From contig JALDRA010000001.1 of assembly GCA_031316235.1 (NCBI GenBank), positions 1,020,001-1,052,000 on the forward strand: a stretch of 32,000 nucleotides of DNA. Direction: 5' to 3'. The stretch is from Candidatus Scalindua sp. (GTDB taxonomy: Bacteria > Planctomycetota > Brocadiia > Brocadiales > Scalinduaceae). The notes beneath the pieces are model-generated. The model was not told where the DNA came from. It did not search any database and saw only the letters and a program-made list of their open reading frames with translations. This document shows, in pieces, positions 8,343 to 26,383 of this stretch; within the stretch, counting starts at the first letter, position 1, and each line of letters opens with the position of its first letter. The translations under genes were made by a program, and so were the position numbers.

Positions 8343-8583
8343 GTTATACAGTGCTCACGGAACACCCCCTCGCCCACATACAACGGGTCGTTCGTAAACA
8401 CCGATGCTCCGCCCTGGGGGAATTCCAAGTACCGCCAACTCGATCGCCCTGTCCGCCATCACTTCAGACTCCTCCTTCTGCGCTAATAACCGCTCATCCC
8501 GCGAATCACTCACCATTGACATGATCGTCAGGCAGACCACACCGCCATCGCCGCCACGAACCCCCCGATAAAGGGTAACCGTT
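8343..8583 (-). pseudogene. Frame-disrupted middle segment of the cytochrome b / dihaem c fusion (linker TM helix + first CxxCH)
   Basis: Three different frames carry sensible pieces: ESRSPVKRLPFIGGFVAAMAV (TM-like), LTIMSMVSDSRDERLLAQKEESEVMADRAIELAVLGIP, and GGASVFTNDPLYVGEGVFREHCITCHGY (CITCH at 8336-8350). The frame changes lie at or near the runs at 8602-8606 and 8416-8420, plus one more near 8530-8550. Confidence 0.6.
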
Positions 8584-9036
8584 TTACCGGTGAGCGGCTC
8601 TCCCCCTGTCAAGAAATGGTATTGCAAGCATTAACAGCGCTGCAATGGTCGGAAGGATAATGGCGCCGACAACCTCCATATCGGCTTCAAAATATTTTAA
8701 CAGTTGAAACAGGAAGAGGAAATACCACTCGGGGCGCGCCATATACTGCGAACTCGGATCCGCCGGAGACTGTAACTCTGCTCCGTGCCGGTACCAGACG
8801 ACTGCCGCCATGATGGCAAATACAACCACGGCTGCCACCACATCCTTGAATATCTGGTCCGGCCAAAAGGGCTGTGTCTTCCTCTTGAGCTCTGACTCAT
8901 CCGGCTTCCAGTGCGGAGTCACCCCGTGTCTTCTGAATAAATAGAGGTGGATGGCCATAAACGTCATCAGGCCGGCAGGAAGAAAGAAAACGTGAAAACT
9001 ATAAAACCGTGTCAGCGTCAGGTTGCCATAATCATT
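8584..9036 (-). CDS. Cytochrome b C-terminal part (subunit-IV-like), fragment
   Basis: The frame reads NDYGNLTLTRFYSFHVFFLPAGLMTFMAIHLYLFRRHGV...PEWYFLFLFQ (Qo-site PEWY)...LAIPFLDRG. It is contiguous with the upstream fragment except for a 1-nt frame change at the C5 run 9037-9041. Confidence 0.75.
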   Translation of the reverse strand, partial: NDYGNLTLTRFYSFHVFFLPAGLMTFMAIHLYLFRRHGVTPHWKPDESELKRKTQPFWPDQIFKDVVAAVVVFAIMAAVVWYRHGAELQSPADPSSQYMARPEWYFLFLFQLLKYFEADMEVVGAIILPTIAALLMLAIPFLDRGRAAHR

Positions 9037-9538
9037 CCCCCTGGACCACTCCCTTTACAAAGTCTCCAAGCTCGGGGATCAGCCCGAGGATGCTCGTCGC
9101 CACCTGCGTAGCCCAGTACCCCTTCTGGTCCCACGGAAGCAGGTAACCGGTAAGTCCGAAGGCAAGGATGATAAAGAGCATAAAGACCCCGGATATCCAA
9201 TTTAACTCACGAGGCTTCTTGTAGGCCCCGAAGATGACCGTTTGCGTGATATGGAGTATCGCAAGCACCATCATCGCGCTGGAACCTACGTTATGCATCC
9301 CCCGCACAAACCACCCGGACAGGGTTTGTTCCTGGATATAATGGACGCTCCCCCACGCATCCGTCGCTGATGCGGAGTATCCTGTCGACAGGATTACGCC
9401 TGAGACAATCTGCATCATGAAGACGATTACCAGGGCACTGCCGAAAACATACGACCACTTCGCACCCCCTTCTACGGGCTCATCCAGAAACTTCTTCACA
9501 AGATCTTTCAGGCCTGTTCTCTCTTCCAACCACTTCAT
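9032..9538 (-). CDS. Cytochrome b N-terminal part (b6-like), fragment
   Basis: 168 aa. Helix-B haem ligands have H-x13-H spacing (GMHNVGSSAMMVLAILH). The LPWDQKGYWAT motif is present. It ends at a premature TGA created at the homopolymer 9037-9041. Confidence 0.8.
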   Translation of the reverse strand: MKWLEERTGLKDLVKKFLDEPVEGGAKWSYVFGSALVIVFMMQIVSGVILSTGYSASATDAWGSVHYIQEQTLSGWFVRGMHNVGSSAMMVLAILHITQTVIFGAYKKPRELNWISGVFMLFIILAFGLTGYLLPWDQKGYWATQVATSILGLIPELGDFVKGVVQGE

Positions 9539-9589
9539 AATATAATGGATCCCGCAATAAGGTGATATGTTCTGCAGATGCAGATATTT

Positions 9590-10144
9590 TCAAGCAGGTA
9601 TTTTTTTTGCAATACCCAGTTTCATCTTCTGATAACGGACAAACAGTTTCCCCTGCTTAATATCTGTTTCAAGGGTATCCATTCTGCGCGGAGATGGCCC
9701 CGAGATAATCTCGCCCTTGATATCAAAATAACTATCGTGGCAGGGACAGACAAATCTCCCCGAATCCTTATCCCAGTCTATCCCGCAACCGAGGTGAGGA
9801 CATATTACCGAAAAGGCCGTAACTGTTTCATCCTCTCCTCGAACCAGCCAGACTGCCCCAATTACCGTTTCCGGGTATTTGGTCCATGCATCCCTGCGCG
9901 AATCCCTGACCGCCACTTTCCTGGGCACGTTGATCTGGCACCCCCGTATGTCTCCAACCTCCACCAGACCCGATGAACTAATCACCGTCTTCTTCAGTGC
10001 GGGACTTATAAAGGCCCGTATGAGCGGTATGCTGTACGCAATACCGATCAGCGACGCAAGAAAGACAGAACAGACCTTGAGAAAGGCCCGCCGGCCGCTT
10101 CCACTCCCGTTTAACTCTTCCTTCCTGCCAGATTCCTCTTTCAT
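9590..10144 (-). CDS. Rieske [2Fe-2S] protein of a cytochrome bc-type complex
   Basis: 184 aa with a twin-arginine signal (SGRRAFLK), then a TM helix. Cluster-binding boxes are CPHLGC and CPCHDS. Confidence 0.9.
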   Translation of the reverse strand: MKEESGRKEELNGSGSGRRAFLKVCSVFLASLIGIAYSIPLIRAFISPALKKTVISSSGLVEVGDIRGCQINVPRKVAVRDSRRDAWTKYPETVIGAVWLVRGEDETVTAFSVICPHLGCGIDWDKDSGRFVCPCHDSYFDIKGEIISGPSPRRMDTLETDIKQGKLFVRYQKMKLGIAKKIPA

Positions 10145-10243
10145 ACTTCAAACCCCCTGCAAGTCAGTGCTTCCCCCGGAAAAATAACTGCACTCTTGTC
10201 AATTGGAAATATACCGTTCAAACTCACGATTTCCGTTTAACCG

Positions 10244-10534
10244 CTATTTAATCACCTTCAGCGAATTGGTATACTCGCCTACTTTCCAGAAATCGTACGA
10301 CTCGTACTTGATCCCCGCCTTATCTTCCAGCGTCTTTAAACGTCTCAGCTTACTGGCTTCGGATTTTATCCGTGCCAGCGATTGATCCTGCTTGAAGGCC
10401 CCCAGCTCGTATGTCTGGAAGTTTGGAGACATATGAAAGGCTGCTTTGTAGACTGTCGTTCCATGGTAGACGAGCATGTCAAAGAATTCCCGCTCTATCG
10501 CGGTAACATTGTACATACGCCCCCCAGGTTCCAC
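10244..10534 (-). CDS. C-terminal fragment of the octahaem HAO-like protein (frame-shifted)
   Basis: RMYNVTAIEREFFDMLVYHGTTVYKAAFH...IKSEASKLRRLKTLEDKAGIKYESYDFWKVGEYT is colinear with the C-terminus of the paralogue at 14262-15842 (RFYNVSDIERMAIEMIVYQVTAVYKAAFH...IKSEASKLRRISTIEKEVGIEHKAYDFWKHGEYT). Confidence 0.8.
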   Translation of the reverse strand: MEPGGRMYNVTAIEREFFDMLVYHGTTVYKAAFHMSPNFQTYELGAFKQDQSLARIKSEASKLRRLKTLEDKAGIKYESYDFWKVGEYTNSLKVIK

Positions 10535-11586
10535 TTGTGCCCCTGGTCAAGGTGCGGCGCAAGATCCTTGGGCATCGCGTCAAGAAGACCCTCTTCATGC
10601 AGATCTTCAATAACAGCCCTCGCCTCTCTTACTTTTGTATGGCTCACTTTTACCGTCTCGTCAGCGCCTCGTAAATATGCGGCCGCAAACCGGGCTGAAT
10701 GACAGTCATTACAGATATTCGTCCACGCTTTCCTTTTCTCTGCAAAATCTTCGGCCCCACGATCAACTTCTTCAACCCCCATATGGGAGTACACCGCATT
10801 TTCAACGGCATTATGTGTCCCATTATACATGTGGCAGTAAGCGCACGTCGGCGCACGGTAGTTACCCACCTTCAGCGGTTTGTCCCAATCCCACCTGTCT
10901 CCGTCAATCGCCGTAATAACTCCGTGTGCCGATGTGTTATAACACTCGGTATCACGATGGTCAGGGCCATTATGGCAGTAGGAACAGGCCTCTGGACGCC
11001 TCGCTTCGGCTGCCTTGAAGCGGTGTCTGAAATGGCAGGAATCACATTTGTTTTCAATCGAATGGCACTGTGCACAGCCGGCGACCTCTGGTTGAGGCTT
11101 GCTGATCTGCCACTCCGATTCAACTACGTCCGGATGAAATGCCCTGGCATGTGAAGGATGACCCGTTTCCCTCTCAGATTTAAAATCTTCAACTTGCTCA
11201 GGGTGGCATTTCGCGCAGATGTCCGGGGTTGGCATCTGGATCTTCTGATGATCAGAGCCATGGCATTTATCACAGGTAACATCTGCTGCGCTATGGGCAC
11301 TCTCTTTCCAGTCAATCGCAATCCTCGGTGTAGTCAGGGAATGACAATTAACACATTTCTCCCCTTCAAAGACACCTTCTATTTTGTTGTCAGGCTCAAA
11401 ATAGTGCCCCGGATCCCACCAGCGGAACATCTCAATCGGTTTCCAGTGTTTGCCCCATTTCCCTTCACCTTTTGTCAACTTTCCAAGTAATCCTTCCGCT
11501 TGAAGAGAGACAGGACAGAAAAACTGGCAGGAAGTCATCATGCAGATAAAAAAGAACAAAAATATTTTCTTTACAGGTGAATTCAT
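10495..11586 (-). CDS. Octahaem hydroxylamine-oxidoreductase-like cytochrome c, N-terminal major fragment (frame-shifted at 10520-10525)
   Basis: Eight CxxCH motifs: CVNCH, CDKCH, CAKCH, CAQCH, CDSCH, CSYCH, CAYCH, CNDCH. The likely true start is ATG 11586, with GGGGAGGG 6 nt upstream and signal peptide MNSPVKKIFLFFFICMM.... Adding one G to the G6 run restores ...HKWNLGGRMYNVTAIE.... Confidence 0.85.
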   Translation of the reverse strand: MNSPVKKIFLFFFICMMTSCQFFCPVSLQAEGLLGKLTKGEGKWGKHWKPIEMFRWWDPGHYFEPDNKIEGVFEGEKCVNCHSLTTPRIAIDWKESAHSAADVTCDKCHGSDHQKIQMPTPDICAKCHPEQVEDFKSERETGHPSHARAFHPDVVESEWQISKPQPEVAGCAQCHSIENKCDSCHFRHRFKAAEARRPEACSYCHNGPDHRDTECYNTSAHGVITAIDGDRWDWDKPLKVGNYRAPTCAYCHMYNGTHNAVENAVYSHMGVEEVDRGAEDFAEKRKAWTNICNDCHSARFAAAYLRGADETVKVSHTKVREARAVIEDLHEEGLLDAMPKDLAPHLDQGHKWNLGGVCTMLPR

Positions 11587-11944
11587 TAACAACCCTCCCC
11601 TTTTTTTCGTGTTGGTTTTAAGTATCAACAATATAATAAGCTCGTTGTTACCACTGTAATAATGATAACCCGAAATCAATAAAAAAACATATCAGCTTGG
11701 TCCATCGAGGTAAATTTATTCTACCCGTTCCAATGAGAGACTCTCTCAAAATTGTCAGGTTTTCGACCCGCATGCGATATTCAGGCGGAAAGGCACGAGT
11801 GGCAGGCAGTCACTGATTGACCGGGTAACGGTATCCAGCTTGTCACTTAACCCTATTTTTTGAACCTGTCCTCCCGGAAGACTCCGCTGGGACGGGTCCG
11901 ACTATTCCGTTCAGGTGGCTACGCAGACACACAAATAAAGACGG

Positions 11945-14261: not shown

Positions 14262-15842
14262 TCAATGCGCTGGTTCATCAAAGCAAGGATGATCTCCATG
14301 CCTACACTCACTCTTAGGAAGAACGTCACCTTCTTTTCTCTTCCAACCAGTCAGCAAGTCAGTGTACTCACCATGTTTCCAGAAATCATAAGCCTTATGC
14401 TCTATACCAACCTCTTTCTCGATGGTTGATATCCTTCTGAGCTTAGAAGCCTCTGATTTAATCTCAATGAGTTTTCTATCCATTGGGAACGCACCTGCGT
14501 TATAAGAAACATCATCAATTGCAAAATGGAATGCAGCCTTATAAACAGCAGTTACCTGATAAACAATCATCTCAATTGCCATTCTCTCAATGTCCGACAC
14601 ATTATAGAACCTTGGTGAACCACCCGGTAACAAACTGAGTGTATGCCCACCGGTCCAGTCAGGTGCCAAATCAGCTGGCATTGGATCAAGCAATCCTTCA
14701 AGATACAAGCCTACAATGATGTTAACAGCTTCACGCCACTTAGTAAAACTGATATGAATCTGTTCGTCAGCAGCACTTAATTGCTCTTCAGCAAAACGTG
14801 GAGAGTGACACCCTTGACATCTCTTTATCCAGGCGTCTCTCTTAGATTTATATCTCGGAGCACCTTTATCTACCTGGAACATACCCATGTGATTATACAC
14901 AGTGGAAACAGCCTGGGTATTGTGATTACCCTCTTCACCCATGTGACAATATGCACAGGTAGGAACACGGTAATTTTTCGGAGTCATCTTCTGTTCCCAA
15001 TCCCATGTATCACCTTCCATCATCAGAATTTTACCATGATATGAGTTGTAATAAAACTCATATTCAGCATGGTCTACACCCATATGGCAAACACCACATG
15101 TTTCAGGCTTCCTGGCTTCTGACTGTTTGAACTGGTGCCTTGTGTGACATCCATCACATCTGTTTGATACAATACCGTGACACTGTGCACAGCTGGCAAC
15201 CTCTTCACCAGGTTTTCCAATCTGCCATGCAAACTCATTTACCTCAATATGCCAAGCATGAGCATGTGAACCCAAGCCACCGGTAATATGATCAGCTCTC
15301 TGCTGTACATGACATTTTCCACAGACACCATGATCAGGCATAACTAATTGCTGATGATTATTTCCATGACAGGCATCACAACCAACAACCTGCTCTTTAT
15401 CCATGTCTGAAGTCTTTCCACCTTTGAAATGCTTACTTGCTTTCCAATCAACTACTATCCTAGGAGTTTGAATAGTGTGACACAATACACACTCTTCCGT
15501 CTTAAACTCACCCTCAACCTTTTGAGTTGAAACATAGTAATGGGCTGGGTCGTAGTACATTGCAGTTACGGGTAAGAAATAGAATATATTTTTGAACTTA
15601 CCTTCACCTGGCATCACTTCATCAGGTCCAGTGTATTTCGCGGTAAGACCGAAAACATAAACTTCACCGCTGTCATCTGGCCCGACTGCCTGGCCAAAAA
15701 TGGAAGATGCAACATCCTGAAATGTTGGTGCAGCTTCATCTGCGTTTGCTTTTGAACTGAATCCGGCCGTTACAACCGTGCAGGTGGCAACTAAAGCAAA
15801 AATGGCCGTACATATTGCGTATCTCCGTGCAAATTGAATCAT
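14262..15842 (-). CDS. Octahaem hydroxylamine-oxidoreductase-like cytochrome c (HAO family paralogue)
   Basis: 526 aa with signal peptide MIQFARRYAICTAIFALVATCTVVTAGFSSKANA. Eight canonical CxxCH motifs: CVLCH, CDACH, CGKCH, CAQCH, CDGCH, CGVCH, CAYCH, CQGCH. AAAGGAGAA lies 7 nt upstream of the ATG. Confidence 0.9.
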   Translation of the reverse strand: MIQFARRYAICTAIFALVATCTVVTAGFSSKANADEAAPTFQDVASSIFGQAVGPDDSGEVYVFGLTAKYTGPDEVMPGEGKFKNIFYFLPVTAMYYDPAHYYVSTQKVEGEFKTEECVLCHTIQTPRIVVDWKASKHFKGGKTSDMDKEQVVGCDACHGNNHQQLVMPDHGVCGKCHVQQRADHITGGLGSHAHAWHIEVNEFAWQIGKPGEEVASCAQCHGIVSNRCDGCHTRHQFKQSEARKPETCGVCHMGVDHAEYEFYYNSYHGKILMMEGDTWDWEQKMTPKNYRVPTCAYCHMGEEGNHNTQAVSTVYNHMGMFQVDKGAPRYKSKRDAWIKRCQGCHSPRFAEEQLSAADEQIHISFTKWREAVNIIVGLYLEGLLDPMPADLAPDWTGGHTLSLLPGGSPRFYNVSDIERMAIEMIVYQVTAVYKAAFHFAIDDVSYNAGAFPMDRKLIEIKSEASKLRRISTIEKEVGIEHKAYDFWKHGEYTDLLTGWKRKEGDVLPKSECRHGDHPCFDEPAH

Positions 15843-16055: not shown

Positions 16056-16083
16056 ATTATACAATCAGCCTTATACTTGTCAA
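16056..16083 (-). promoter_or_regulatory. Sigma70-type promoter for the HAO-like gene
   Basis: On the minus strand: TTGACA (16083-16078), 16 nt, TATAAT (16061-16056). Both hexamers are perfect consensus. It lies between the hzsA terminator and the HAO-like start and implies a roughly 200-nt leader. Confidence 0.5.
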
Positions 16084-16103: not shown

Positions 16104-16139
16104 AAAAAAAAAGCTGGCATAGTATGATCTATGCCAGCT
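16104..16139 (-). terminator. Rho-independent terminator after hzsA
   Basis: The minus-strand RNA forms a perfect 11-bp stem AGCUGGCAUAG-AUCAUA-CUAUGCCAGCU followed by U9. It lies 40 nt after the hzsA stop. Confidence 0.8.
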
Positions 16140-16179
16140 TACGTACTACACTGATTCAGAAAATCGCCTTAAGGCTGAT

Positions 16180-18597
16180 TTATCTCCTTGAATATCCAGG
16201 ATATGGATCTGGTCCCTGAATATTATCCCACTGTGCACCCAAATCTACCCACTCAACAAACAGGTATCTTTCTTCAGGAGTCAGGATTTTGTTATGCATT
16301 ACCCTGCCTTCTAGTGGGAAGGTGTTATCACTTGTTGCAAACTGTGATAATGGTTCCTCATAGAGCCTCCAGATAAGAGGGCTATTGATAGCAGCACTTG
16401 GATTCACGTATCTACCACCAATGTTCTTATCCTTACCCTGCAGAGGTGCCAGCAAGCTGTTGTAAGAACTGCTGAAGGCAGCAATCCCATCAACAGAAAC
16501 CAGCTTTGTGCTACCGGCGAGATTAGGTGCCTGCCCAGAGCTATGGCAGCTGGCACATTTTGCATCAATTAATGGCTGAATGTCTCTTCTGAAATCGACT
16601 GTTCTGAGTTTGTCAATATTCAAACCTTCAACCTTCTGTGATGTCGTACCAGAAGCACCACCGTAGTAAACGTCAGCTGGTACAACAACGTCTTCACCAT
16701 GCTTTACCCCGGCGTATTTACCATTCTTATCAATTCTGACATTCGCCCACATAAATGGCGAATCGTAATGGCTTAAATCACTATACCACCAGTTGTAAAG
16801 AGCTTTCGAATGGATATTCTTATACCCCCTCTTGTCATATGAACCCCAGTGGCATCCAGTACAGATTCTCCCACCATAAGGCCTTACATATGCCCATGAA
16901 AGCTGCGTCTGAACTGCCATGCCATTCTCATCAAGGATCTGAGCACAGTATGGCTCATCTCCGGGATGTGAGCTTACAACAGAACCATCATCTTCAACGT
17001 ACTGATAACCAAACATACGTCTCTGAGTAAACATGGTACCTGAGTTACTACTTGTTCTTTCACCACCAAGCAGGTGCCTACCTGCACCAACGATAAACCT
17101 GGAAGAATCCGGTTCTTTTGTCTCGATAGCGTTCAGCGTTCGAATCGCTTTCACATCACCATGCTTCATCTCCTTGGCCCTCTGATGCGGATATGGACCA
17201 ATTGGAAGATTAGTCAAGGTAGTATCAAAACAGATAGTAGTACTCCAGGAGTGCGGATATCCTTCGACGTTCACCTGATCAAAAGGCTGGTACGTCACCG
17301 TGGTAACACCAAATTCTTTACCAGCAGTAAAAGAGTTAATCCATCTTGGTTTATAACGAGGATATACTGGCTGTGGCTGATGATCGTTCCACTCAGGATC
17401 ATCATAAACCTTCTCACCGACGGTTCCCTTGCTTGCATCAAACCAAAACAGGCCGAAATCCTGTCTCTCTGAAGATGAAACCATCAACCTTCCATCTGGC
17501 ACAGGGAATGGACTCCTGTAAAGCCTCCCATCATTATTAAGTCTTGATTGAGTCTTGGCATGAGGAGTCGTCCAGCTAACCCTTGCAAGATTTCCAACAC
17601 CTGAATTGTAATCCAAGGCCTCAATATAATACAGATATCCGTCCACAGCTTCCCTTGCCTGAATTTTAGCAGTGTGTGGCTGCTCAGAACACTCATTACC
17701 ATAAATATGCCTTGGATATGATCCATCCCAGTTATCAACTATGAGACAGACACTTCCTTTACCCCCAGCCCGTGGCCCATTTGCCTGTGTACTGCTGAAC
17801 ATAATATTTCCGTCACGAGTTAAAGCTGGATCAAAATCAGAACTTACATTATAGGTAATCCTGTCAGCAACAGAATTTGTGCTCGGCATATCGATACCCA
17901 TAAGTTTGTGACCACAGATTCTGTCCATCATGTTTCCACCCTGCGGATCAAGCCTGTAGAGGCTGTACGAGTAATTATTATAATACTCATCCATAGCGTC
18001 TGCAGGTGAGTATGTGATGATCAAGAAGCCAGTTTTCTCAACTTCTCCTCTCACTTTCCAGTCACCTTCAAAATACCTGTCTCGTGAGATAACCCTGCCT
18101 TTACCAGACTCTATGGCACCGGCCGCATAATAGATCGGGCTCCTTGCTGTACCAGGCAAATCAGTCAACTGCCTTACACCGGAACCATCAATATTCATTT
18201 CCCAGATTTGACATCCACCACCGTTTTTATGAACACCGGCAAATGCAACTCTTGAGCAATCCCAATTTAGGCAGGGATCAAAAGCGCTCTGAAAATCATT
18301 TGTTAAAACCTGCACACTTCTTGTTTTCATATTATATGAAACTATCCTGCTATTATTGGAAACATAGTTCGGATATTGATGATACGGATCACCAGCACTT
18401 GTAGGCTTCGACTGAGTGAAGATAACAGAGTCAATATTCCCCTGTATCTCCTTTGACATACCCCAATAGTCACCCCAAATAGCCTTACCCGGCTGGTGAC
18501 CACCTACCATTACCTGTGCCTGGCAAGTTGAACCTAAAAGTCCACTTATTGCCACAGCACCAGCTAACGCCATTGTCGCAAAAAATCCCTTTTTCAT
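16180..18597 (-). CDS. hzsA: Hydrazine synthase alpha subunit
   Basis: 805 aa from ATG 18597 (GGAAAGGAGA upstream), with signal peptide MKKGFFATMALAGAVAISGLLGSTCQAQV. A long haem-free N-terminal region is followed by two CxxCH motifs (CTGCH, CASCH) in the C-terminal third. It is the last gene after hzsB-hzsC. Size, haem layout and synteny match my recollection of kuste2861. Confidence 0.9.
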   Translation of the reverse strand: MKKGFFATMALAGAVAISGLLGSTCQAQVMVGGHQPGKAIWGDYWGMSKEIQGNIDSVIFTQSKPTSAGDPYHQYPNYVSNNSRIVSYNMKTRSVQVLTNDFQSAFDPCLNWDCSRVAFAGVHKNGGGCQIWEMNIDGSGVRQLTDLPGTARSPIYYAAGAIESGKGRVISRDRYFEGDWKVRGEVEKTGFLIITYSPADAMDEYYNNYSYSLYRLDPQGGNMMDRICGHKLMGIDMPSTNSVADRITYNVSSDFDPALTRDGNIMFSSTQANGPRAGGKGSVCLIVDNWDGSYPRHIYGNECSEQPHTAKIQAREAVDGYLYYIEALDYNSGVGNLARVSWTTPHAKTQSRLNNDGRLYRSPFPVPDGRLMVSSSERQDFGLFWFDASKGTVGEKVYDDPEWNDHQPQPVYPRYKPRWINSFTAGKEFGVTTVTYQPFDQVNVEGYPHSWSTTICFDTTLTNLPIGPYPHQRAKEMKHGDVKAIRTLNAIETKEPDSSRFIVGAGRHLLGGERTSSNSGTMFTQRRMFGYQYVEDDGSVVSSHPGDEPYCAQILDENGMAVQTQLSWAYVRPYGGRICTGCHWGSYDKRGYKNIHSKALYNWWYSDLSHYDSPFMWANVRIDKNGKYAGVKHGEDVVVPADVYYGGASGTTSQKVEGLNIDKLRTVDFRRDIQPLIDAKCASCHSSGQAPNLAGSTKLVSVDGIAAFSSSYNSLLAPLQGKDKNIGGRYVNPSAAINSPLIWRLYEEPLSQFATSDNTFPLEGRVMHNKILTPEERYLFVEWVDLGAQWDNIQGPDPYPGYSRR

Positions 18598-18710
18598 AAG
18601 TTGGGAGTCTCCTTTCCTCTCGTATATAAAATTACACAATTTAATAATTTCTCAATTATTTCTGAAATCCATAGCCCCTATTTTGGAGGCTATCTGATCA
18701 GTAAAACACC

Positions 18711-19736
18711 TTAAAGAGCCTTCATAAACTCAACAAGGTCCTGTAATTCCTGATTACTCAGATGCGATGTAACACCATGCATATCCTTTGTTGTAACGGA
18801 GTTATCAATCGTATCCATCAGAGTCTCAGCACTGCCATCATGGAAATAGGTACCGGACGCATAGATATCCCTCAATGTCGGGGTATCAAATTCCTTTACC
18901 AGATCCAATCCGATAATCGGCACATCATAATCCTCACCATATGGATCAACTCCTTTTTCCAACGCTGCGGTATTGAATACCTCACCTGGTGTCGTCCTGA
19001 ATCCATCCCTTCCTACCCTTCCGGTTCCAACGTCATGAGTCTGAGCATCACTGAACAGTGCCCTTGGGTTGTTAGGATCTCCCGGATGGCACTCAATGCA
19101 TCCCACCTTCGGATCACTGAAAACCTTCCAGCCTCTCTTTTGAGCCTCGGTCATCGATCCATCTGCATTGCGGAAAGGACTACCCGTAAACTCTAAAGAA
19201 CGGATGTAAGCAACCAATGCCTCCAGTCTTTCAGGCGAGAAGTTCTCACTTCTGAACACAAATCCAGGGTCTCGTCCGCATACCCTGTCGATTGATGATG
19301 TAGCACCTACGATCTCATCAGGATGACCCGTAAATCCTTCATGCCTGAATGGAGGGAGGTACCTTCCGCCACGGATGTACTTCGTATTCTTCCAGCTGCC
19401 CCAGCCTTCATCACCAAGATCCCAGATCAGACCTGTTGTCTGACCTCTCTCATAGTGACAGCTTGCACATGAGTACTCACCCTGTAAAGTCCATGAATTC
19501 TCATTAAACTGAAATTGTCCATACCTTACCAGTTCGCTCTTGTAAGGTGAATGCTTCACCCTGTAATGCACCTCAGGGACAGTCAACGGCTCTCCTCTTT
19601 CCAATGGAGCCCATTCCGGCCCTGTCTGTATAGTCGCTATAACCTGAGCCTCTCCTGCATCAGCAAACTTCACAGTTGCAGTCAGGCAAAAAAGACACAG
19701 GGTAGCAATTAAGCTCAACACAAACATCTTCCTCAT
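18711..19736 (-). CDS. hzsC: Hydrazine synthase gamma subunit (dihaem, cytochrome c peroxidase/MauG-like)
   Basis: 341 aa from ATG 19736, with a perfect AGGAGG 6 nt upstream and signal peptide MRKMFVLSLIATLCLFCLTATVKFADA. Two CxxCH motifs (CASCH, CIECH). The longer listed ORF, which overlaps hzsB, is an upstream extension without an SD. Confidence 0.9.
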   Translation of the reverse strand: MRKMFVLSLIATLCLFCLTATVKFADAGEAQVIATIQTGPEWAPLERGEPLTVPEVHYRVKHSPYKSELVRYGQFQFNENSWTLQGEYSCASCHYERGQTTGLIWDLGDEGWGSWKNTKYIRGGRYLPPFRHEGFTGHPDEIVGATSSIDRVCGRDPGFVFRSENFSPERLEALVAYIRSLEFTGSPFRNADGSMTEAQKRGWKVFSDPKVGCIECHPGDPNNPRALFSDAQTHDVGTGRVGRDGFRTTPGEVFNTAALEKGVDPYGEDYDVPIIGLDLVKEFDTPTLRDIYASGTYFHDGSAETLMDTIDNSVTTKDMHGVTSHLSNQELQDLVEFMKAL

Positions 19737-19798
19737 TACCAACCTCCTAAAAAAAACAGTTAAAGTTAAATACTCAAAAAACCCCAGCCATACAATAA

Positions 19799-20935
19799 TC
19801 AATCAAGCGGAGTCCTGATTACGGATACATTATTCGAAAAATAGTTCGCAGCATAACATATCTTACCATCCGGAGACAGCGCAACTGAACTTGGCCCGAG
19901 TCCTACATTCACCCTCTTCACCAGGTAGTCTACCATAATCGTAAGATCATCCTTCATCTCATCCAGCTCATCCTGTGAGCTGGTCTGGATGATCTCTGTC
20001 ATCTTACCCAGATCAAGAATAGTAACCCTGTGCATACCCCTTACACCGATGTACACATATTTACCCTCTGGACAGATTGCGATTCCATAGGGATTACCAT
20101 CGTAATTGTTGTGCTCATCGAGTGGAAACTGTGCAACTTTACCGCCAGCCCTCGTCTCAACCATTGCAACATTGTTTGAGAAAATCTGGGCATTTTCAGC
20201 CTCGCAGACAGGCAGCCAGTTCTTTGGCTGTTCCATCGTAAAGAGAACGTACTTACCATCAGGAGTATACTCAACGCCCCTGAAGTTGGCGCTACCGGGT
20301 ACTACCCTTGTCTCAGTAACCCTGCCTGTTGCAAGGTCAATGAAATCAACGCACCTGTTTATTTTGCCCGTCGTATCAAGAACAACCGCGGCTTTCTTCC
20401 CGTCAGGAGATATCGCTATATCCCTTGGACCATAGTCAGATGTCCTGATCTCACCGATTTTGTTGTTCATTGCTGTATCAATGATATCAACAGTGTTCCA
20501 CATACTTCCTGAGCAGCACACATATGCCTTCGAACCATCCTTAGACAGCTTTATGCTGCATGGCCAGTCGCCAACTTTGATGGTCTTTATTACTGCCTTG
20601 GTGCCCACATCAATGATGGAAACTGAATCACTTTCAGCGTTACATACATACAGCGTTCTCCCATCTTGAGTACATACCGTTGCTTCCGGCTGTACCTGAA
20701 CAGGCACTTCACCGGTAACTTTCCTTGTTCTCGTATCAACAAAAGTCACACTGTGGCCTGACTGATTTGCAAGAAACAACGTACCGCCATCAGGAGAAAC
20801 CGATACGTGAAACGGGGAAGGATGTTCAGTCCTCACCCTTGTACCCTGAATAAAACCGGCACTGGCACTTTGAGATATCGCCAGAGATACCAAGCCGGCC
20901 CCGAGGATACTCCAAAATAAACTCCCTTTTTTCAT
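19799..20935 (-). CDS. hzsB: Hydrazine synthase beta subunit (haem-free beta-propeller)
   Basis: 378 aa with signal peptide MKKGSLFWSILGAGLVSLAISQSASA and no CxxCH. It has repeated YVTN-type blades (DGGTLFLANQSGHSVTFVD, DGRTLYVCNAESDSVSIID, DGSKAYVCCSG..VDIID, DGKICYAANYFSNNVSVI). AGGAGGTG lies upstream of the ATG. Confidence 0.9.
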   Translation of the reverse strand: MKKGSLFWSILGAGLVSLAISQSASAGFIQGTRVRTEHPSPFHVSVSPDGGTLFLANQSGHSVTFVDTRTRKVTGEVPVQVQPEATVCTQDGRTLYVCNAESDSVSIIDVGTKAVIKTIKVGDWPCSIKLSKDGSKAYVCCSGSMWNTVDIIDTAMNNKIGEIRTSDYGPRDIAISPDGKKAAVVLDTTGKINRCVDFIDLATGRVTETRVVPGSANFRGVEYTPDGKYVLFTMEQPKNWLPVCEAENAQIFSNNVAMVETRAGGKVAQFPLDEHNNYDGNPYGIAICPEGKYVYIGVRGMHRVTILDLGKMTEIIQTSSQDELDEMKDDLTIMVDYLVKRVNVGLGPSSVALSPDGKICYAANYFSNNVSVIRTPLD

Positions 20936-20971
20936 TCTTCACCTCCTAAAAGTTAACAAAAAACACTAAAA

Positions 20972-21559
20972 TTAGAAACTCGGAACATGTGGACACTCAC
21001 CCGACTTCTTGCAAACAGTCTCCAGTGGTTTCCCACACTCCTCACAACTGCCAGGGTCTACCAACGTAGGGATATACTCGACCTTTTCATCAAGTTTATG
21101 CCCTCTCCCTGGATGCTCAAAGGTCTTACCACAACCCGTACATTTAAAATCAATCTTAGACCAGACTTTCTTACTGTCTATATCGCCCATGCATACTTCA
21201 CAACCACCCGGATTAGGCATACACTTTTCATATGCCTCACACTCCTTCTCGATACAGCTGAATTTGATCCTTTCACAGCCCCAGGCCTCAGGAAGATCCT
21301 GATGTTTTTTCGCTTCATCATACTCCTCAGAACCAGATTCATATTTCTTAAAGTCCCAGATGTAATTAATATTTTTACAGTCTTTAAACTCGTTAATTTC
21401 CTTACATATCGGACAATAATAATGCAACTGAATCTTTTTTTTCGGACATTCACCCTCAGCATATACCGAGCTCACCTGACCAACTGCCAGATTTACCAAA
21501 AACATGCAAGCAAATATTGCAATGACAAGACGTCCCATCCTTCTTTTTACTGTAAACAC
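20972..21559 (-). CDS. Secreted cysteine-rich protein (multiple CxxC knuckles), first gene of the hzs transcription unit
   Basis: The mature part has 16 Cys, including CPIC, CEVC, CTGC and CEEC pairs, and no CxxCH. The signal peptide is (MFTVKRR)MGRLVIAIFACMFLVNLAVGQVSSVYA. The start is either GTG 21559 (AGGGGGTGA 4 nt upstream) or ATG 21538. The ORF-track start at 21661 lies upstream of the promoter. Confidence 0.7.
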   Translation of the reverse strand: MFTVKRRMGRLVIAIFACMFLVNLAVGQVSSVYAEGECPKKKIQLHYYCPICKEINEFKDCKNINYIWDFKKYESGSEEYDEAKKHQDLPEAWGCERIKFSCIEKECEAYEKCMPNPGGCEVCMGDIDSKKVWSKIDFKCTGCGKTFEHPGRGHKLDEKVEYIPTLVDPGSCEECGKPLETVCKKSGECPHVPSF

Positions 21560-21635
21560 TTCTTCACCCCCTTTCACAACAAAAAAACGTTCTCGAATTA
21601 AAACCAAAATCAATTCAGACATTTTCTCAAGAGTT

Positions 21636-21651
21636 AGCAGAAAGCATGCCA
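21636..21651 (-). promoter_or_regulatory. Sigma54 (-24/-12) promoter upstream of the Cys-rich gene and hzsBCA
   Basis: The minus strand reads TGGCATGCTTTCTGCT, against the consensus TGGCACG-N4-TTGCW. The GG-N10-GC spacing is exact. It lies about 75-100 nt upstream of the first start codon and 180 nt downstream of the stop of a sigma54 activator gene. Confidence 0.6.
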
Positions 21652-21832
21652 AAAGCGGCATCTAATTTTTTGTACTCTAAACCTAAACATACTAAAATCT
21701 TACAAAATTTTCTTTCTATCGTAAACATCAGTATTAAAAGAATGTCGCGGCGCAAATAAGCCATAGCATTCGATAAACCGCCAGCACACCAAACCTACCA
21801 GAAGCCCTGCATATTGTCAATAGTTTTATAAA

Positions 21833-23224
21833 TTAATTGCTACCATATTTTTCCAACCGATACCTCAGTGTCCCACGTGTCAAACCCAGCATTTTCGCAG
21901 CTTTTGTTTTATTATTATTACTTTTTTTCAGGGCCTGTAATACAATCGTTTTCTCAACTTCTTCAAGGCAAATACCCTCCGGAGGTATTTCAAAATCAAT
22001 CGAAACCTCCTTTTTTCCCTTATCACCACACTTACCATTCGAATTACCCTGCTTCGTAAGGTTTAAAGGCAGATGCTCTTCATGTATCGTATCCCCCTTA
22101 CACAAAATCACCGCCCTCTCTATACAATTCTTTAACTCCCTAATGTTACCTTCCCAGACATTTGAGATGAGCAGCTTTTCAGCATTCCTTGAGATTTTCA
22201 TGAGGCATTTACCCATTTTGACTGAGTAGCGCTCGATGAAGGTATTTACCAGAGAAATAATATCCTCTGATCTTTCACGAAGAGGTGGTATTTGGATTGG
22301 AAATACGTTGATTCGGTAAAAGAGGTCCTCTCTGAAGTCCCCTTCTTTTACAAGCTGTCCAAGGTCTTTATTGCTTGCACAGATAATTCTCACATCTACC
22401 TTCACTGTTTCTGAACCCCCGAGCCTTTCCAGCTCCCTTTCTTCAACGACCCTCAATACCTTTGCCTGGATAACAGGATTCATCTCAGAAATTTCATCTA
22501 GAAAAAGAGTCCCCCCATTAGCTAATTCAAATCGACCTTTTTTGCTCTTTTCAGCACCAGTAAAAGCCCCTTTTTCATAACCAAACAATTCACTCTCTAA
22601 CAGATTTTCCGGCAGGGCTGCGCAATTTATCGTAACCAACGGTCCACTCTTTCGAAGACTATTGAAATGAATAGCCTTGGCAACCAACTCCTTCCCGGTT
22701 CCACTTTCACCATAAATCGAAACAGTAGAGTCTGTCCTTGATACATCGCCTGCCAACAAAAGAACTTCAAGCATTTTGGGAGAGTTGGTAATGATAGTCC
22801 CAAAATTGTAATGCGACTCTAATTCGTTGCGCAGGTATCTATTTTCAATTGTAAGAGATCTAATCTTAATAGCCTTTTTAATCGCAACAGCCAGAGCATC
22901 CCCCTCAAAAGGTCTGGGGATATAGTCAAATGCCCCCTCCTTCATCGCCTTAACCGCTATTTCCACGGAGTCATCTCCGGTAATAATAATGACCGGCAGT
23001 TCCGGATCCTTCGATTTTAAACGCCTCAAGAATTCAAGACGACCAATCCTGGGTGACCTCAGATCGGTTATAACCAAATGCACTCTTTCGCAGTTGATAA
23101 AATCTAATATTGACAATTCACTCTGCACTTTAACAAGTTCTACACCTGCCACTTCTTCAAGAATAACCCCAATATTTCGGATCATCCGCTCTTCATCATC
23201 AGCTACCAGTACCCTACTTTTCAT
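21833..23224 (-). CDS. Sigma54-dependent response regulator (NtrC family enhancer-binding protein)
   Basis: 463 aa. The receiver domain has VLVADDEE...VITDL. The AAA+ domain has Walker A GESGTGKE and the sigma54-contact loop GAFTGA. The C-terminal Fis-type HTH is KTKAAKMLGLTRGTLRYRLEKYG. Confidence 0.95.
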   Translation of the reverse strand: MKSRVLVADDEERMIRNIGVILEEVAGVELVKVQSELSILDFINCERVHLVITDLRSPRIGRLEFLRRLKSKDPELPVIIITGDDSVEIAVKAMKEGAFDYIPRPFEGDALAVAIKKAIKIRSLTIENRYLRNELESHYNFGTIITNSPKMLEVLLLAGDVSRTDSTVSIYGESGTGKELVAKAIHFNSLRKSGPLVTINCAALPENLLESELFGYEKGAFTGAEKSKKGRFELANGGTLFLDEISEMNPVIQAKVLRVVEERELERLGGSETVKVDVRIICASNKDLGQLVKEGDFREDLFYRINVFPIQIPPLRERSEDIISLVNTFIERYSVKMGKCLMKISRNAEKLLISNVWEGNIRELKNCIERAVILCKGDTIHEEHLPLNLTKQGNSNGKCGDKGKKEVSIDFEIPPEGICLEEVEKTIVLQALKKSNNNKTKAAKMLGLTRGTLRYRLEKYGSN

Positions 23225-23279
23225 TTAAGTTACAAACTCCCAATAGTACTAAACCGTAAAGAACAGAACCTAAAGCAAA

Positions 23280-24164
23280 TCAGCAACAAAGTGTTACCAG
23301 AGAACAAATCAGCGAAGCGAGCATAAATCCAACAATGAGCAGACCGACAACAAGAAACGGCAGCCCCATTATTTTTGAAACAAGGCTCCCGCCACAACCC
23401 GCTGGCCTGACTCTCAGAGCTTCCAACTCACCATTTTCCTTCAGCCTCTCATAATAAGCACCTCTCTCGTGAGACATATGCTCTTCAGAAATCCGTCCCG
23501 TAAACATCGCCTCGTCAACCGGCATATTTTCCGGGAGCAAATGGGTGTGAAAAAAATGGATCGTAAAGATAAAACCTGCCGCCAGCAAAGCCTCGTACCT
23601 GTGTGCCACCAGGGCCAAACTTGGCAGATCAATGATACTGGCAAGATTAACCGGCACCAGGCTGGTTGCCTGCACCGGAAACCAGAGGACAAAACCTGTA
23701 GTTGCCATGACAAATGTGCCCCACATAAGCGACAGATACTCCATTTTTTCCCAGTAAATCCACCTATCATAATTAGGACGGCTTCCCAAACGGAAAAACC
23801 ATAAAACATCACCCAAAATATTAAGCAAATCTTTCGGCTGGATCAACAGGGAATCAGGCCCCCAGAAAATGCCCCTGTCCTTCTTAACCAGTGTCTGCAC
23901 CGAAAGGAAAGCAAAATGTAAAAAGGCAGCAAAAAATGTAATCAACGCACAGATTCTATGTATTATACCAGCAGTTGGATACCCACCCATAACTCCATAT
24001 AACCAGTGCGCCCAGCCATAATCCTTAAAGACGAGAGGCATACCCGTTAAAACCAAGCCAAAAAAACTGATAATAACGAGAAAATGACTAAACCTGTGAA
24101 ACAAGCTAAACCTTAAAAAATGACTATCACTTGCCATGTTTTGATTCCTTTCCCTTACGCTCAT
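23280..24164 (-). CDS. Cytochrome-b-like integral membrane protein (FdnI / Ni-hydrogenase cyt b type), putative quinol-oxidising subunit
   Basis: 294 aa with 5-6 hydrophobic helices carrying conserved His (FHRFSHF, IIHRICALITFFAAFLHF, VAHRYE, IHFFHTH). It overlaps the upstream haem gene by 38 nt; the alternative start ATG 24137 overlaps by 11 nt. Confidence 0.75.
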   Translation of the reverse strand: MSVRERNQNMASDSHFLRFSLFHRFSHFLVIISFFGLVLTGMPLVFKDYGWAHWLYGVMGGYPTAGIIHRICALITFFAAFLHFAFLSVQTLVKKDRGIFWGPDSLLIQPKDLLNILGDVLWFFRLGSRPNYDRWIYWEKMEYLSLMWGTFVMATTGFVLWFPVQATSLVPVNLASIIDLPSLALVAHRYEALLAAGFIFTIHFFHTHLLPENMPVDEAMFTGRISEEHMSHERGAYYERLKENGELEALRVRPAGCGGSLVSKIMGLPFLVVGLLIVGFMLASLICSLVTLCC

Positions 24165-25122
24165 CTAATATAGTAGCCAGCCATGTAAGGACTGAATGCA
24201 TACCAAAACCAGAAAATGTCATTACCAAAATACCCACATACATCACAAATAAAATCGTAATAAGCGTCTGAGGACTCTTCACAAGCCCTGCTACCTTCTC
24301 CCGATCACTACGAATATCTTTAACTGCCCCAACGATCGTCTTATAATAATTTATATTCTTATATTGCGGATGCGCAACATGTTTTACAAAAGTGCTGTTT
24401 GCACCTGGATGGCAAGTACCGCATGTCTCTATAAGATTCTCAGAACCCACTGTTGACTCAGGGTCAGATGAATTTAAAATCTTGTGCTGACCATGACAAT
24501 CAACACAGGTCGCTATATCTGTGCCGACATACCCCAGTGCTGTAACCTGACCGTGCAGATTATTACGGTACGAATTAAAAAACTCCTCATGACACCCACC
24601 ACACTTATCGATCGTATCTTTTCTATGTGACAGATCGTCAGCTCTCGGGACATCACGTTTTGATTTAAGTCCGGCATGGCAGTACTTACAAGTCGGAGGC
24701 TGAATATCATTTTCCTTCATCAGCGCCACATGGCTACTTTCAAGAAATTCCTCAGCCGGATCATCATGGCAAAATGTTATGCAATCAACTGGTTGTAAAT
24801 TTGGATAATGCTCCCCCTCCGACTCCTCAAGATCCGCATGACAATCAATACAATAGAAATCTTCACCTCCATGAGCAGAAGCGTGAAAGGCCTCTTCGTC
24901 AACCAGCATGGATACTATTTCAACCTCGCCTGTTACATGGTCCACCCTCACCTTAACATCAACTTTAGAGGGATCAGTATGGCAATCCAAGCAATCATTA
25001 TTTTCTTGAGCATGAAGACAGTATGAAGAAACAGCGGAAATGAGAACAGCAAGGAACGCTACAAAAAGAAACCTCACCGCTTTATTATTGACAGCTCCAC
25101 AAGTGCTGAGAATGGATGCCAC
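24127..25122 (-). CDS. Heptahaem cytochrome c with C-terminal membrane anchor
   Basis: 331 aa from a GTG start, with AAGGAGGGA 8 nt upstream. Six CxxCH motifs (CLDCH, CIDCH, CKYCH, CGGCH, CVDCH, CGTCH) plus one CxxxCH (CITFCH, 24766-24783). It has an N-terminal signal and the C-terminal helix LITILFVMYVGILVMTFSGFGM. Confidence 0.85.
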   Translation of the reverse strand: MASILSTCGAVNNKAVRFLFVAFLAVLISAVSSYCLHAQENNDCLDCHTDPSKVDVKVRVDHVTGEVEIVSMLVDEEAFHASAHGGEDFYCIDCHADLEESEGEHYPNLQPVDCITFCHDDPAEEFLESSHVALMKENDIQPPTCKYCHAGLKSKRDVPRADDLSHRKDTIDKCGGCHEEFFNSYRNNLHGQVTALGYVGTDIATCVDCHGQHKILNSSDPESTVGSENLIETCGTCHPGANSTFVKHVAHPQYKNINYYKTIVGAVKDIRSDREKVAGLVKSPQTLITILFVMYVGILVMTFSGFGMHSVLTWLATILDERKGKESKHGK

Positions 25123-25424
25123 TGTATAATTCCCTCCTTTTGCTAAAAAGGTTGTACCTAGCTAACCTAAATGGGCATACTTTTCTAACGACAACCGGCC
25201 AATAAATCATAGCAACATCCGCCACACTACGAATCAATCTTCCTGTTTGCCGGGCATGTCCAATAAATACTTCAAATCACTACAAGGTAATCCTAATGAC
25301 TCATAATAAAAAAATTCATTGGGTGGTGAGCCAGTCTCACCAAGACCTCTCTCCCACCCAATCAACCCTAACACCCCTACAACTATTCAGCTCCAAACTA
25401 ACGAATCACATCAAACCAACAGCA

Positions 25425-26171
25425 TCAATGCTTCGCATTACTTGGTTTTGTCTGAAACAGTGGATCTTTCTCAATATACCCTTTCCACTTATTCTTATCC
25501 ACCGTCGGCAATACATCATCGATAGGATCGTGGTCTCTATGATCGTCAAGTTTAAAATATTTTTTAAAGTCCATGACTATAGGCTTGCCAGTCTCCTTGT
25601 CATTGCCAGCCTTTGGACACTTATTTTTATCATTTGCGTCTTCCCAATGACACTCCAGACACTGCTCTCTAATAGTGTCATATTTGTTAATACCAGCCAC
25701 AATCAGCCCGGCATCAAACTGTACCTTCCTCGCCATCATCGGGTCTTCTTTCAGAAGATTCTTAAAAGCATCTTTTCCCTTTTTGTTGTAATTCTTTTTT
25801 ACATCAACATATGCTTCCCCTGGACCGTGACACGCTTCACAGGTAACATTCTCCAGAAAATCACCATATTTGGATTTCCCTTTTTTAATCTTCATACCAT
25901 ACGCCGTTGCATGACACCTCAAACACTCTGGATTTGTCTTCTCTTCATCGGTCACCAACCTCTTATTAAATGTTTTCGAATGCAATCTCGCCTTATACTC
26001 TTCACCCTCAAAACACCCCTTCGACAAATGGCACTTACAGCCAGAATTACTCATATACTTGTATTTCTGCTTATCAGCCCCAAAACTTTGAGACCCCTGA
26101 AAAACAAAGACCGACGATACGACCACTACAGCAAAAACTATCAAAAACGCTCTCAAGCTGCGACTCAACAT
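25425..26171 (-). CDS. Trihaem cytochrome c (cytochrome c554-like multihaem family)
   Basis: 248 aa with signal/anchor MLSRSLRAFLIVFAVVVVSSVFVF. CxxCH motifs are CLRCH, CEACH and CLECH, plus an odd CKCH at 26028-26039. The antisense 301-aa ORF (25296-26201) is rejected. Confidence 0.85.
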   Translation of the reverse strand: MLSRSLRAFLIVFAVVVVSSVFVFQGSQSFGADKQKYKYMSNSGCKCHLSKGCFEGEEYKARLHSKTFNKRLVTDEEKTNPECLRCHATAYGMKIKKGKSKYGDFLENVTCEACHGPGEAYVDVKKNYNKKGKDAFKNLLKEDPMMARKVQFDAGLIVAGINKYDTIREQCLECHWEDANDKNKCPKAGNDKETGKPIVMDFKKYFKLDDHRDHDPIDDVLPTVDKNKWKGYIEKDPLFQTKPSNAKH

Positions 26172-26354: not shown

Positions 26355-26383
26355 ATTTTATCAAGAGGAAAATATCATGTCAA
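26355..26383 (-). promoter_or_regulatory. Sigma70-type promoter for the trihaem/heptahaem/cyt b/regulator operon
   Basis: On the minus strand: TTGACA (26383-26378), 17 nt, TAAAAT (26360-26355). It lies about 180 nt upstream of the trihaem ATG, just after the accC stop and a T6 tract. Confidence 0.5.

Follow-up and report, generated by a model that had tools for sequence, protein, structure and literature searches.

Hydrazine synthase (HZS), to our knowledge the sole enzyme that forms hydrazine biologically, is a diagnostic marker of anaerobic ammonium oxidation (anammox), and anammox is responsible for a major part of the nitrogen lost from the oceans. In Kuenenia stuttgartiensis the genes preceding those of HZS, kuste2854-2858, have been tabulated as encoding a triheme protein, a heptaheme protein, an FdoI-like cytochrome b556, a sigma54 response regulator, and an unknown protein (PMC6423088), and genes of the kuste2854-2857 type appear in the description of Kuenenia as an electron-transfer module (ETM) plus a regulator (PMC12053348). 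Here we analyze a 32,000-nt stretch of DNA (the window) from contig JALDRA010000001.1 of Candidatus Scalindua sp. (assembly GCA_031316235.1, positions 1,020,001 to 1,052,000), in which eight consecutive minus-strand open reading frames (ORFs), all uninterrupted, occupy positions 16180-26171. An earlier note, made from the sequence without database searches, had described them as eight co-oriented genes forming a complete hydrazine synthase cluster together with its ETM. The order, limits, and lengths it gave agree with the ORF list and with motif and hydropathy counts, and its reading of the cluster is confirmed by the crystal structure 5C2V, the NCBIfam equivalogs, and the order of kuste2854-2861; comparison with the latter gives a gene-for-gene correspondence. 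Since the five upstream genes pair one-to-one with kuste2854-2858 and the other three match the Hzs subunits, the main interpretation of that note was right. The region is very likely the main hydrazine-synthase locus of an uncultured Scalinduaceae anammox bacterium of the SCAELEC01 group, belonging to a species distinct from the database representatives. The system itself is textbook anammox biochemistry, to which the window adds no new chemistry; what the window offers is an intact and complete locus, comprising the ETM, the regulator, HZS, and the hydroxylamine oxidase HOX, from a little-studied, deep-branching Scalinduaceae lineage.

The last three genes of the cluster, which had been recognized as those of the HZS beta, gamma, and alpha subunits, match chains B, C, and A of the crystal structure, respectively. 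They are hzsB (19799-20935, 378 aa), hzsC (18711-19736, 341 aa), and hzsA (16180-18597, 805 aa from ATG), all on the minus strand. The HzsA match to 5C2V_A spans residues 3-779 of 782 (E = 0, 1199 bits), and HzsB and HzsC align with 5C2V_B (E = 1.3e-163) and 5C2V_C (E = 9.1e-189) over nearly the full mature length. The mature N-termini of the 5C2V chains align straight after the predicted cleavage regions, in agreement with the signal peptides that had been noticed on the Hzs proteins. All three proteins exceed the cut-offs of their NCBIfam equivalogs: HzsA scores 1581 bits against 800 (alpha, NF052339), HzsB 695.8 against 560 (beta, NF052340), and HzsC 726.4 against 625 (gamma, NF052341). The middle domain of HzsA is also recognized by PF18582 (HZS_alpha) at E = 5.6e-22.

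The residues to which catalytic roles have been ascribed (PMC12758564; 10.1101/2023.01.22.525020) could be traced in each subunit. The heme alpha-I site of HzsA, CTGCHWGSY at aa 579-587, is aligned to CSGCHYGSY of Kuenenia (His587/Tyr591) and retains the Tyr four residues past the alpha-I His, which corresponds to the ligand Tyr591; this proximal Tyr is missing from non-anammox HZS homologs (PMC12758564). Heme alpha-II is represented by CASCH at aa 681-685, whose Cys residues are invariant in 32 sequences. HzsB is a seven-bladed YVTN propeller with no CXXCH motif, thus heme-free, and its gating loop PKNWLPVCEAEN, which carries a Glu, is invariant or nearly so across 16 aligned sequences. HzsC is a diheme MauG/CcP-like protein with CASCH for heme gamma-I and CIECH for heme gamma-II; its VCGRD motif is identical to that of Kuenenia, so that the third covalent Cys (Cys165) and Asp168 at gamma-I are kept. 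Judged by sequence, HzsB, HzsC, and HzsA are intact orthologs of the crystallized Kuenenia enzyme.

One sub-feature, not a family-defining one, differs. At aa 299-303 HzsA reads YGNEC, with a Glu in the column of the Kuenenia zinc ligand alpha-Cys303 and a Cys one residue further on. Because Glu replaces Cys303, a zinc site of the Kuenenia style cannot form beside alpha-I in this protein. The column reads YGNE in all 16 Scalinduaceae HzsA sequences, including that of the window, and YGNC in all Brocadiaceae; the Cys adjoining YGNE was found only in the window and in locus L002. The same lineage pattern has been published, the zinc site at alpha-I being reported as lacking in Scalinduaceae (PMC12758564). 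The YGNE signature thus provides independent support for the placement of the window in this family.

The taxonomic affiliation follows from identities along the entire locus. One genome per GTDB species was scanned, which yielded 60 hzs loci (denoted by L numbers below). In the HzsB protein search, Scalindua and other Scalinduaceae came out on top at 91%, as opposed to 63-68% for Jettenia, Brocadia, and Kuenenia; among the loci, the best HzsB matches were L002 (94%), SCAELEC01 (L003, 94%), and RBC_AMX3 (L004, 91%), giving 91-94% within Scalinduaceae. HzsA is 91-95% identical to its Scalinduaceae counterparts vs. 59-66% for Brocadia and Kuenenia, and AccC 93-95% vs. 68-74%. All 13 window proteins tested by tblastn, including AccB/AccC and TrpA/TrpB, are nearest to L002 and L003 (76-96%), the same proteins being 50-82% identical to those of Brocadia and Kuenenia. 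The nucleotide identity of the window to L002 and L003 is about 82% across roughly 20 kb, and therefore the window represents a different species of the SCAELEC01 group. SCAELEC01 is a GTDB genus of deep-branching Scalinduaceae for which the name 'Ca. Actiscalindua' has been proposed (PMC11104535, PMC13597103). The sole match in an exact look-up of the HzsB sequence was a 1.6-kb Logan contig from run SRR28338162.

The earlier note had preferred a Kuenenia/Brocadia/Jettenia-type host to Scalindua, arguing from the separate hzsB and hzsC genes. Its observation is correct: hzsB ends with TGA at 19801-19799, hzsC starts with ATG at 19736 after a 62-nt spacer, and AGGAGG, its own Shine-Dalgarno (SD) sequence, lies 6 nt before the ATG. 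The conclusion drawn from it is refuted by the protein and nucleotide identities, by YGNE, and by the occurrence of split genes within Scalinduaceae. When the hzsB frame was read through in 24 loci, a fused 690-aa ORF with two CXXCH motifs was found in L007, L008 (S. arabica), L010-L015, and L018-L020 (that of L018, clipped at the contig start, reads 678 aa), and a 378-aa hzsB ORF with its stop codon in the window, L002-L005, L016, L039 (S. sediminis), and L055 (S. rubra). Among the loci fetched, the hzsBC fusion is confined to canonical marine Scalindua, and split genes in non-canonical Scalinduaceae had already been published (PMC9723696). Against the fusion model NF052342, with a cut-off of 1250 bits, HzsB and HzsC of the window score only 733 and 726 bits, so they are not assigned to the fused HzsBC type. 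Since S. rubra, S. sediminis, and the SCAELEC01 group, among others in the family, have hzsB and hzsC apart, separate genes are no argument against Scalinduaceae, and the split or fused state of hzsBC alone is no basis for lineage assignment. A broken gene was seen in one RBC_AMX3 locus (L060, 10001-11123), where an otherwise complete cluster has an hzsB frame ending after 18 aa and an hzsC match of only 41%; a second contig of the same metagenome-assembled genome (MAG), L004, carries hzsB and hzsC intact, and the break may be due to a mis-assembly or to a disrupted copy.

The ETM begins with the ortholog of kuste2854 (25425-26171, minus strand, 248 aa), identified by motif count and synteny. 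It had been called a triheme cytochrome c, and three CXXCH motifs (CLRCH, CEACH, and CLECH) are indeed present behind an N-terminal signal-like segment; the contracted motif CKCH at aa 45-48 had been missed, and the Kuenenia ortholog is a tetraheme protein. All 33 sequences compared, drawn from four anammox families, have CKCH. Kuste2854 has been described as an experimentally established tetraheme protein exchanging electrons with HZS (PMC8388095) and, under the name TH, as a putative electron donor to HZS (PMC12607021). By analogy, the predicted tetraheme protein of the window is proposed to be the direct electron donor to heme gamma-II of HZS.

The second ETM gene, the kuste2855 ortholog (24127-25122, minus strand, 331 aa), has a GTG start behind an invariant SD sequence. 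It encodes the heptaheme cytochrome c with a membrane anchor that the motif count had led one to expect, with the refinement that one of the seven sites is of the CX3CH type (CITFCH) next to six CXXCH. An N-terminal hydrophobic segment and a C-terminal transmembrane helix (287-305) are present. All seven heme motifs are conserved among the orthologs, CITFCH being kept in 34 of 35. The third gene (23280-24164, minus strand, 294 aa), the kuste2856 ortholog, encodes an FdnI/cytochrome b556-like membrane subunit without heme c motifs. Its 12 His residues, of which nine are kept in 97% or more of the sequences, its four to five hydrophobic helices, and weak matches to FdnI and cytochrome b561 profiles bear out the earlier reading as a His-rich cytochrome-b-like protein. 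The heptaheme gene directly precedes the cytochrome b gene in more than 30 loci. The two genes share 38 nt (24127-24164) in the window and overlap similarly in most loci, which suggests translational coupling. The cytochrome b is proposed, again by analogy, to be the quinol-oxidizing part of the ETM that would pass electrons onward to HZS.

Downstream of hzsA and outside the limits of the cluster as originally drawn, the gene at 14262-15842 (minus strand) encodes a protein with eight CXXCH motifs that shares about 70% identity with the hydroxylamine oxidases 4N4J (E = 1e-190) and 6T5E (E = 9e-192). Assignment as a hydrazine dehydrogenase (HDH) was considered and rejected: the score against NF052343 is 404.7 with a cut-off of 900, and the HDH structure 6HIF (E = 1.5e-109) is a poorer match than the hydroxylamine oxidases. 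The protein is therefore of the octaheme HOX type, an ortholog of kustc1061, and not HDH. The HOX gene occupies the same position after hzsA in many Scalinduaceae and Brocadiaceae loci, and the task ascribed to HOX is the re-oxidation of hydroxylamine that has escaped from HZS (PMC8388095). This placement, together with the recycling role, extends the functional unit beyond the eight genes. The order accB-accC-TH-heptaheme-cytochrome b-sigma54 activator-Cys-rich-hzsB-hzsC-hzsA-hox-trpB-trpA, traced with the 13 window proteins, is common to many loci of both families.

The components, key residues, export signals, and synteny are read directly from the sequence, and the steps that would connect them are taken from the Kuenenia literature. 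The cytochrome b and heptaheme pair would oxidize menaquinol in the anammoxosome membrane, and the soluble tetraheme protein would carry the electrons to heme gamma-II and then to gamma-I, where NO would be reduced to NH2OH. The latter would reach heme alpha-I via an internal tunnel, with the beta loop acting as a gate, and there be condensed with NH3 to N2H4; HOX would re-oxidize any leaked NH2OH to NO. The catalysis we infer for the window HZS is thus NO + NH4+ + 3 e- -> N2H4.

The fourth gene of the cluster (21833-23224, minus strand, 463 aa), the kuste2857 ortholog, is the sigma54 activator that had been named from the sequence. It is an NtrC-type enhancer-binding response regulator with a PF00072 receiver, PF00158 (Sigma54_activat, E = 7e-70), an AAA lid, and PF02954 (HTH_8). 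GAFTGA at 219, Walker A GESGTGKE at 172, and receiver residues D9, D10, and D55 are intact, and no NCBIfam equivalog reaches its cut-off with this protein. The receiver position normally held by Lys in the KPF motif varies (R/K/N/T) among orthologs from hzs clusters, while the paralogs located by second hzs copies keep the Lys. Together with the lack of a histidine kinase gene inside the cluster, this variability hints that the protein is activated in an unusual way.

A candidate sigma54 -24/-12 promoter, TGGCATGCTTTCTGCT, was found at 21636-21651 (minus strand), about 75 nt ahead of the start of the Cys-rich gene. Of 17 Scalinduaceae loci scanned, 16 have an element at the equivalent site, as does Ca. 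Subterrananammoxibius; Brocadia loci with the activator gene have weaker -24/-12 variants. In an alignment of 11 intergenic sequences with a mean identity of 50%, TGGCA and TGC are invariant, and the only other conserved island is the SD sequence. Counted on both strands, the 1.59 Mb of locus sequence contains the strict pattern TGG[CT]A[CT]-N5-NTGC 55 times (0.035 per kb), and roughly 19 of the listed sites upstream of the Cys-rich gene or hzsB fit it. Eight loci without the activator gene in their cluster were also checked; none showed an intergenic element, and such matches as there were fell inside the Cys-rich coding sequence. Another motif, TTGGACATGCCCGGC, located between the tetraheme and heptaheme genes, was considered as a sigma54 site and rejected, its GG-to-GC spacing being one off.

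A second hzsBCA copy is found in many anammox genomes (eleven loci: L004, L007, L031, L033, L034, L038, L039, L041, L047, L050, and L057). These copies have neither ETM nor Cys-rich gene; in front of them lies a sigma54 activator paralog that is 42-45% identical. In nine of the eleven, TGGTAY-N5-TTGC is located 180-300 nt before hzsB, and the other two have weaker variants. These observations indicate that the Cys-rich gene and hzsBCA of the window probably form a sigma54-dependent operon switched on by the neighboring activator.

Candidate signals at its borders suggest how the cluster could be divided into transcription units, at least three by our reading. The tetraheme gene would be transcribed alone from a candidate sigma70-like promoter at 26355-26383 (minus strand; TTGACA-17-TAAAAT with TG, 11/12 consensus), about 185 nt upstream of it. 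Behind this gene, a terminator- or attenuator-like GC-rich hairpin followed by U7 (25308-25362, minus strand) separates it from the heptaheme gene; its centroid energy is -28.9 kcal/mol (z = -3.45), and none of 200 shuffled sequences folds equally well. An equivalent post-tetraheme hairpin with a different inner sequence exists in L002, L003, and L060. The second unit, comprising the Cys-rich gene and hzsBCA with the sigma54 promoter and the cluster activator as its switch, would end at an intrinsic terminator 40 nt after the hzsA stop codon (16111-16140, minus strand; 12-bp GC-rich stem and T9), which folds at -29.4 kcal/mol (z = -4.74, again 0 of 200 shuffles). The HOX gene would form the third unit, preceded by a perfect sigma70 promoter sequence, TTGACA-16-TATAAT (16056-16083, minus strand, 12/12 consensus). 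The promoter function of both sigma70-like sites is predicted from the consensus match only.

The fifth gene of the cluster, the kuste2858 ortholog, encodes a secreted Cys-rich protein, as had been noted before. Its ORF extends from 20972 to 21661 on the minus strand and contains 18 Cys residues and an internal signal peptide. The start is most likely the GTG at 21559, which gives a 195-aa protein (20972-21559): the SD sequence GAAAGGGGGTGAAGA and this GTG form the conserved island of the intergenic alignment mentioned above, and the alternative upstream ATG at 21661 is placed within the promoter element. The ORF has no Pfam match. In an alignment of 39 sequences of this family, 12 Cys and one His are invariant. 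A word-indexed search found 17 relatives, all unnamed and without Pfam domains, and an exhaustive profile search among 1.84 billion proteins found only 27 representatives at E <= 1e-3. In all hzs clusters examined that include the ETM, this gene immediately precedes hzsB. The CXXC spacing and distant relatives such as P0153 suggest that the CXXC pairs form zinc-ribbon-like knuckles. An AlphaFold structure predicted from an 18-sequence alignment has a mean pLDDT of 52.5, and a Foldseek search with it against the Protein Data Bank (PDB) yielded no match with an E value under 0.69.

In Kuenenia proteomes kuste2858 is about 100-fold less abundant than the HZS subunits (PMC6423088), which fits an accessory rather than a stoichiometric role. 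We tentatively propose, as a combination that has somewhat less than an even chance of being right, that the cluster activator with its atypical receiver controls hzs directly through sigma54 and that the Cys-rich protein serves HZS as a dedicated accessory or maturation factor present in sub-stoichiometric amounts. A search of the open literature found no paper on sigma54 control of hzs or on the Cys-rich protein as an HZS accessory. The comparison of about 60 loci thus provides two testable leads: a conserved sigma54 promoter/activator pair before the hzs genes, and an anammox-restricted secreted Cys-rich protein with almost no relatives elsewhere.

Two further observations concern this family. 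In an 824-aa metagenomic protein, P0144, a domain resembling the C-terminal half of the Cys-rich protein (714-818) follows a long run of unrelated 'SPQINxxGQVVW' repeats; no other multi-domain member of the family was found, and we judged this one uninformative. Tandem pairs of Cys-rich genes were observed in L005 (4406-5783), L009 (8746-9963), L016 (8704-9960), and L055 (8691-9961), and a single gene in the window, L002, and L003.

Several points weigh against the reading of the locus as a functional hydrazine-forming system under sigma54 control. Every mechanistic step ascribed to the window organism is a transfer from Kuenenia, and the replacement of alpha-Cys303 by Glu, typical of Scalinduaceae, means that the alpha-I site may differ in detail. 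In the ETM, the cytochrome b matches TIGR01583 with only 36 bits (E = 6e-9) where the cut-off is 115.85, and PF01292 (cytochrome b561) weakly; searches of PDB sequences with the three ETM proteins gave only cytochrome c554 for the tetraheme protein (E = 0.009) and noise otherwise. As for regulation, TGGCATGCTTTCTGCT agrees with only 9 of the 12 sigma54 consensus positions, its GG and GC cores having the correct spacing, the receiver Lys of the activator (aa 104) is replaced by Arg, and rpoN was not seen in the window, outside which it lies. Finally, the sigma70 and terminator scans overall yield no more sites than shuffled sequence. One could imagine a paralog that does not form hydrazine, of the 'HZS_alpha domain' type with fused beta-gamma homologs, or an inactive or degenerating copy. 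Distant non-anammox homologs do exist (PMC12758564), and there are frameshifts elsewhere in the window, in an HAO-like gene around 10520 and in an apparently split cytochrome b gene. This explanation is nevertheless very improbable, given the equivalog-level scores, the identity of 64-82% to the Kuenenia hertensis subunits (L052), the presence of the alpha-II heme site and of the alpha Ser-Tyr (CTGCHWGSY) that is deleted in the non-anammox homologs, the integrity of all eight ORFs, and the conserved context of a full ETM and HOX. Still more improbable, to a degree that we regard as nearly excluding it, is an origin from a Kuenenia/Brocadia/Jettenia-type member of Brocadiaceae. Such an origin would agree with the truly separate hzsB and hzsC, since all Brocadiaceae loci examined are split too; it conflicts with HzsB, HzsA, AccC, and every other gene, which are far nearer to Scalinduaceae, with YGNE in place of YGNC, and with the split genes of S. 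rubra, S. sediminis, SCAELEC01, and other Scalinduaceae (PMC9723696).

The rival to be taken most seriously concerns expression. All eight genes, or nine with HOX, could constitute a single constitutive sigma70 operon, the TGGCA-N7-TGC element being fortuitous or serving another purpose and the activator regulating unrelated targets. The genes are co-oriented and tightly packed, strong constitutive expression would suit HZS as one of the most abundant proteins of anammox bacteria (PMC6423088), and in some anammox lineages the activator gene is not in the cluster; the incomplete consensus match of the element points in the same direction. We consider this arrangement unlikely but worth keeping in mind, as it leaves unexplained why the element and just one other island are conserved in intergenic regions that are half identical, why a pattern so rare recurs at some 19 sites upstream of hzs, and why it co-occurs with the activator gene in both types of cluster; nor does it suit the hairpin and U-run after the tetraheme gene and the strong terminator after hzsA. 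A sigma54-dependent unit of the Cys-rich gene and hzsBCA is more consistent with these features.

Beyond the hzs locus, a second respiratory cluster (7839-11679, minus strand) is located directly downstream of trpBA. It encodes an HAO-like octaheme protein (10495-11679), a Rieske protein (9590-10144), a cytochrome b in two ORFs (9032-9538 and 8584-8967), and a cytochrome c (7839-8342), all on the minus strand, and has a GC content of 0.50-0.54, as compared with about 0.42 elsewhere. An HAO-like gene likewise follows trpA in L002, L003, L008, L037, L047, and L057. In the window this gene is frameshifted at a G6 run at 10520-10525 (CTGGGGGGC on the coding strand), after which reading goes on in a different frame to about 10244; in L002 the ortholog is unbroken, a single ORF of 444 aa or more. 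The frameshift and the cytochrome b break could be either homopolymer assembly errors or real decay. Further away, the gene at 4687-5160 (minus strand) encodes an RRM-type RNA-binding protein that ends in a Gly-rich tail (GGYGGG/KGG); tandem repeats of 21 and 48 nt at 4738-4908 code for this C-terminal tail. A DEAD-box helicase gene (2299-3630) lies near the RRM gene. Rfam and tRNA scans of the window gave no match.

Compared with the described systems, the window cluster has the same eight genes in the same order as kuste2854-2861 of Kuenenia stuttgartiensis (PMC6423088, PMC12053348). It shares with the crystallized HZS of that organism (5C2V/5C2W) the heme motifs, alpha Tyr591, gamma Cys165 and Asp168, and the beta loop, and differs from it in the zinc ligand alpha-Cys303, in place of which the window has Glu with Cys as the next residue. 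The HOX gene, directly downstream of hzsA in the window, has in the draft Kuenenia genome a locus tag, kustc1061, from another contig. The proteins of the Kuenenia hertensis locus are only about 63-82% identical to those of the window.

Within the family, canonical marine Scalindua (S. profunda, S. brodae, S. japonica, S. arabica, and MAGs from oxygen-deficient zones) have beta and gamma in one 690-aa polypeptide (PMC11104535, PMC9723696); the flanking genes, the order of the ETM, sigma54 activator, and Cys-rich genes, and the sigma54 element are as in the window. The second, short hzs copies (for example in L004, L038, L039, L047, and L057) resemble the window in having an activator paralog and the element, but lack the ETM and the Cys-rich gene, so that the window represents the full version. 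The closest counterparts are the loci of the SCAELEC01 group, CBDCUS010000013.1 (L002), SHMT01000008.1 (L003), and RBC_AMX3 (L060). They have the same gene order from accB to the HAO-like/Rieske cluster, encode proteins 76-96% identical to those of the window, and match the window in the split hzsB and hzsC, the single Cys-rich gene, the position of the sigma54 element, and the post-tetraheme hairpin, while their nucleotide identity to it is only about 82%.

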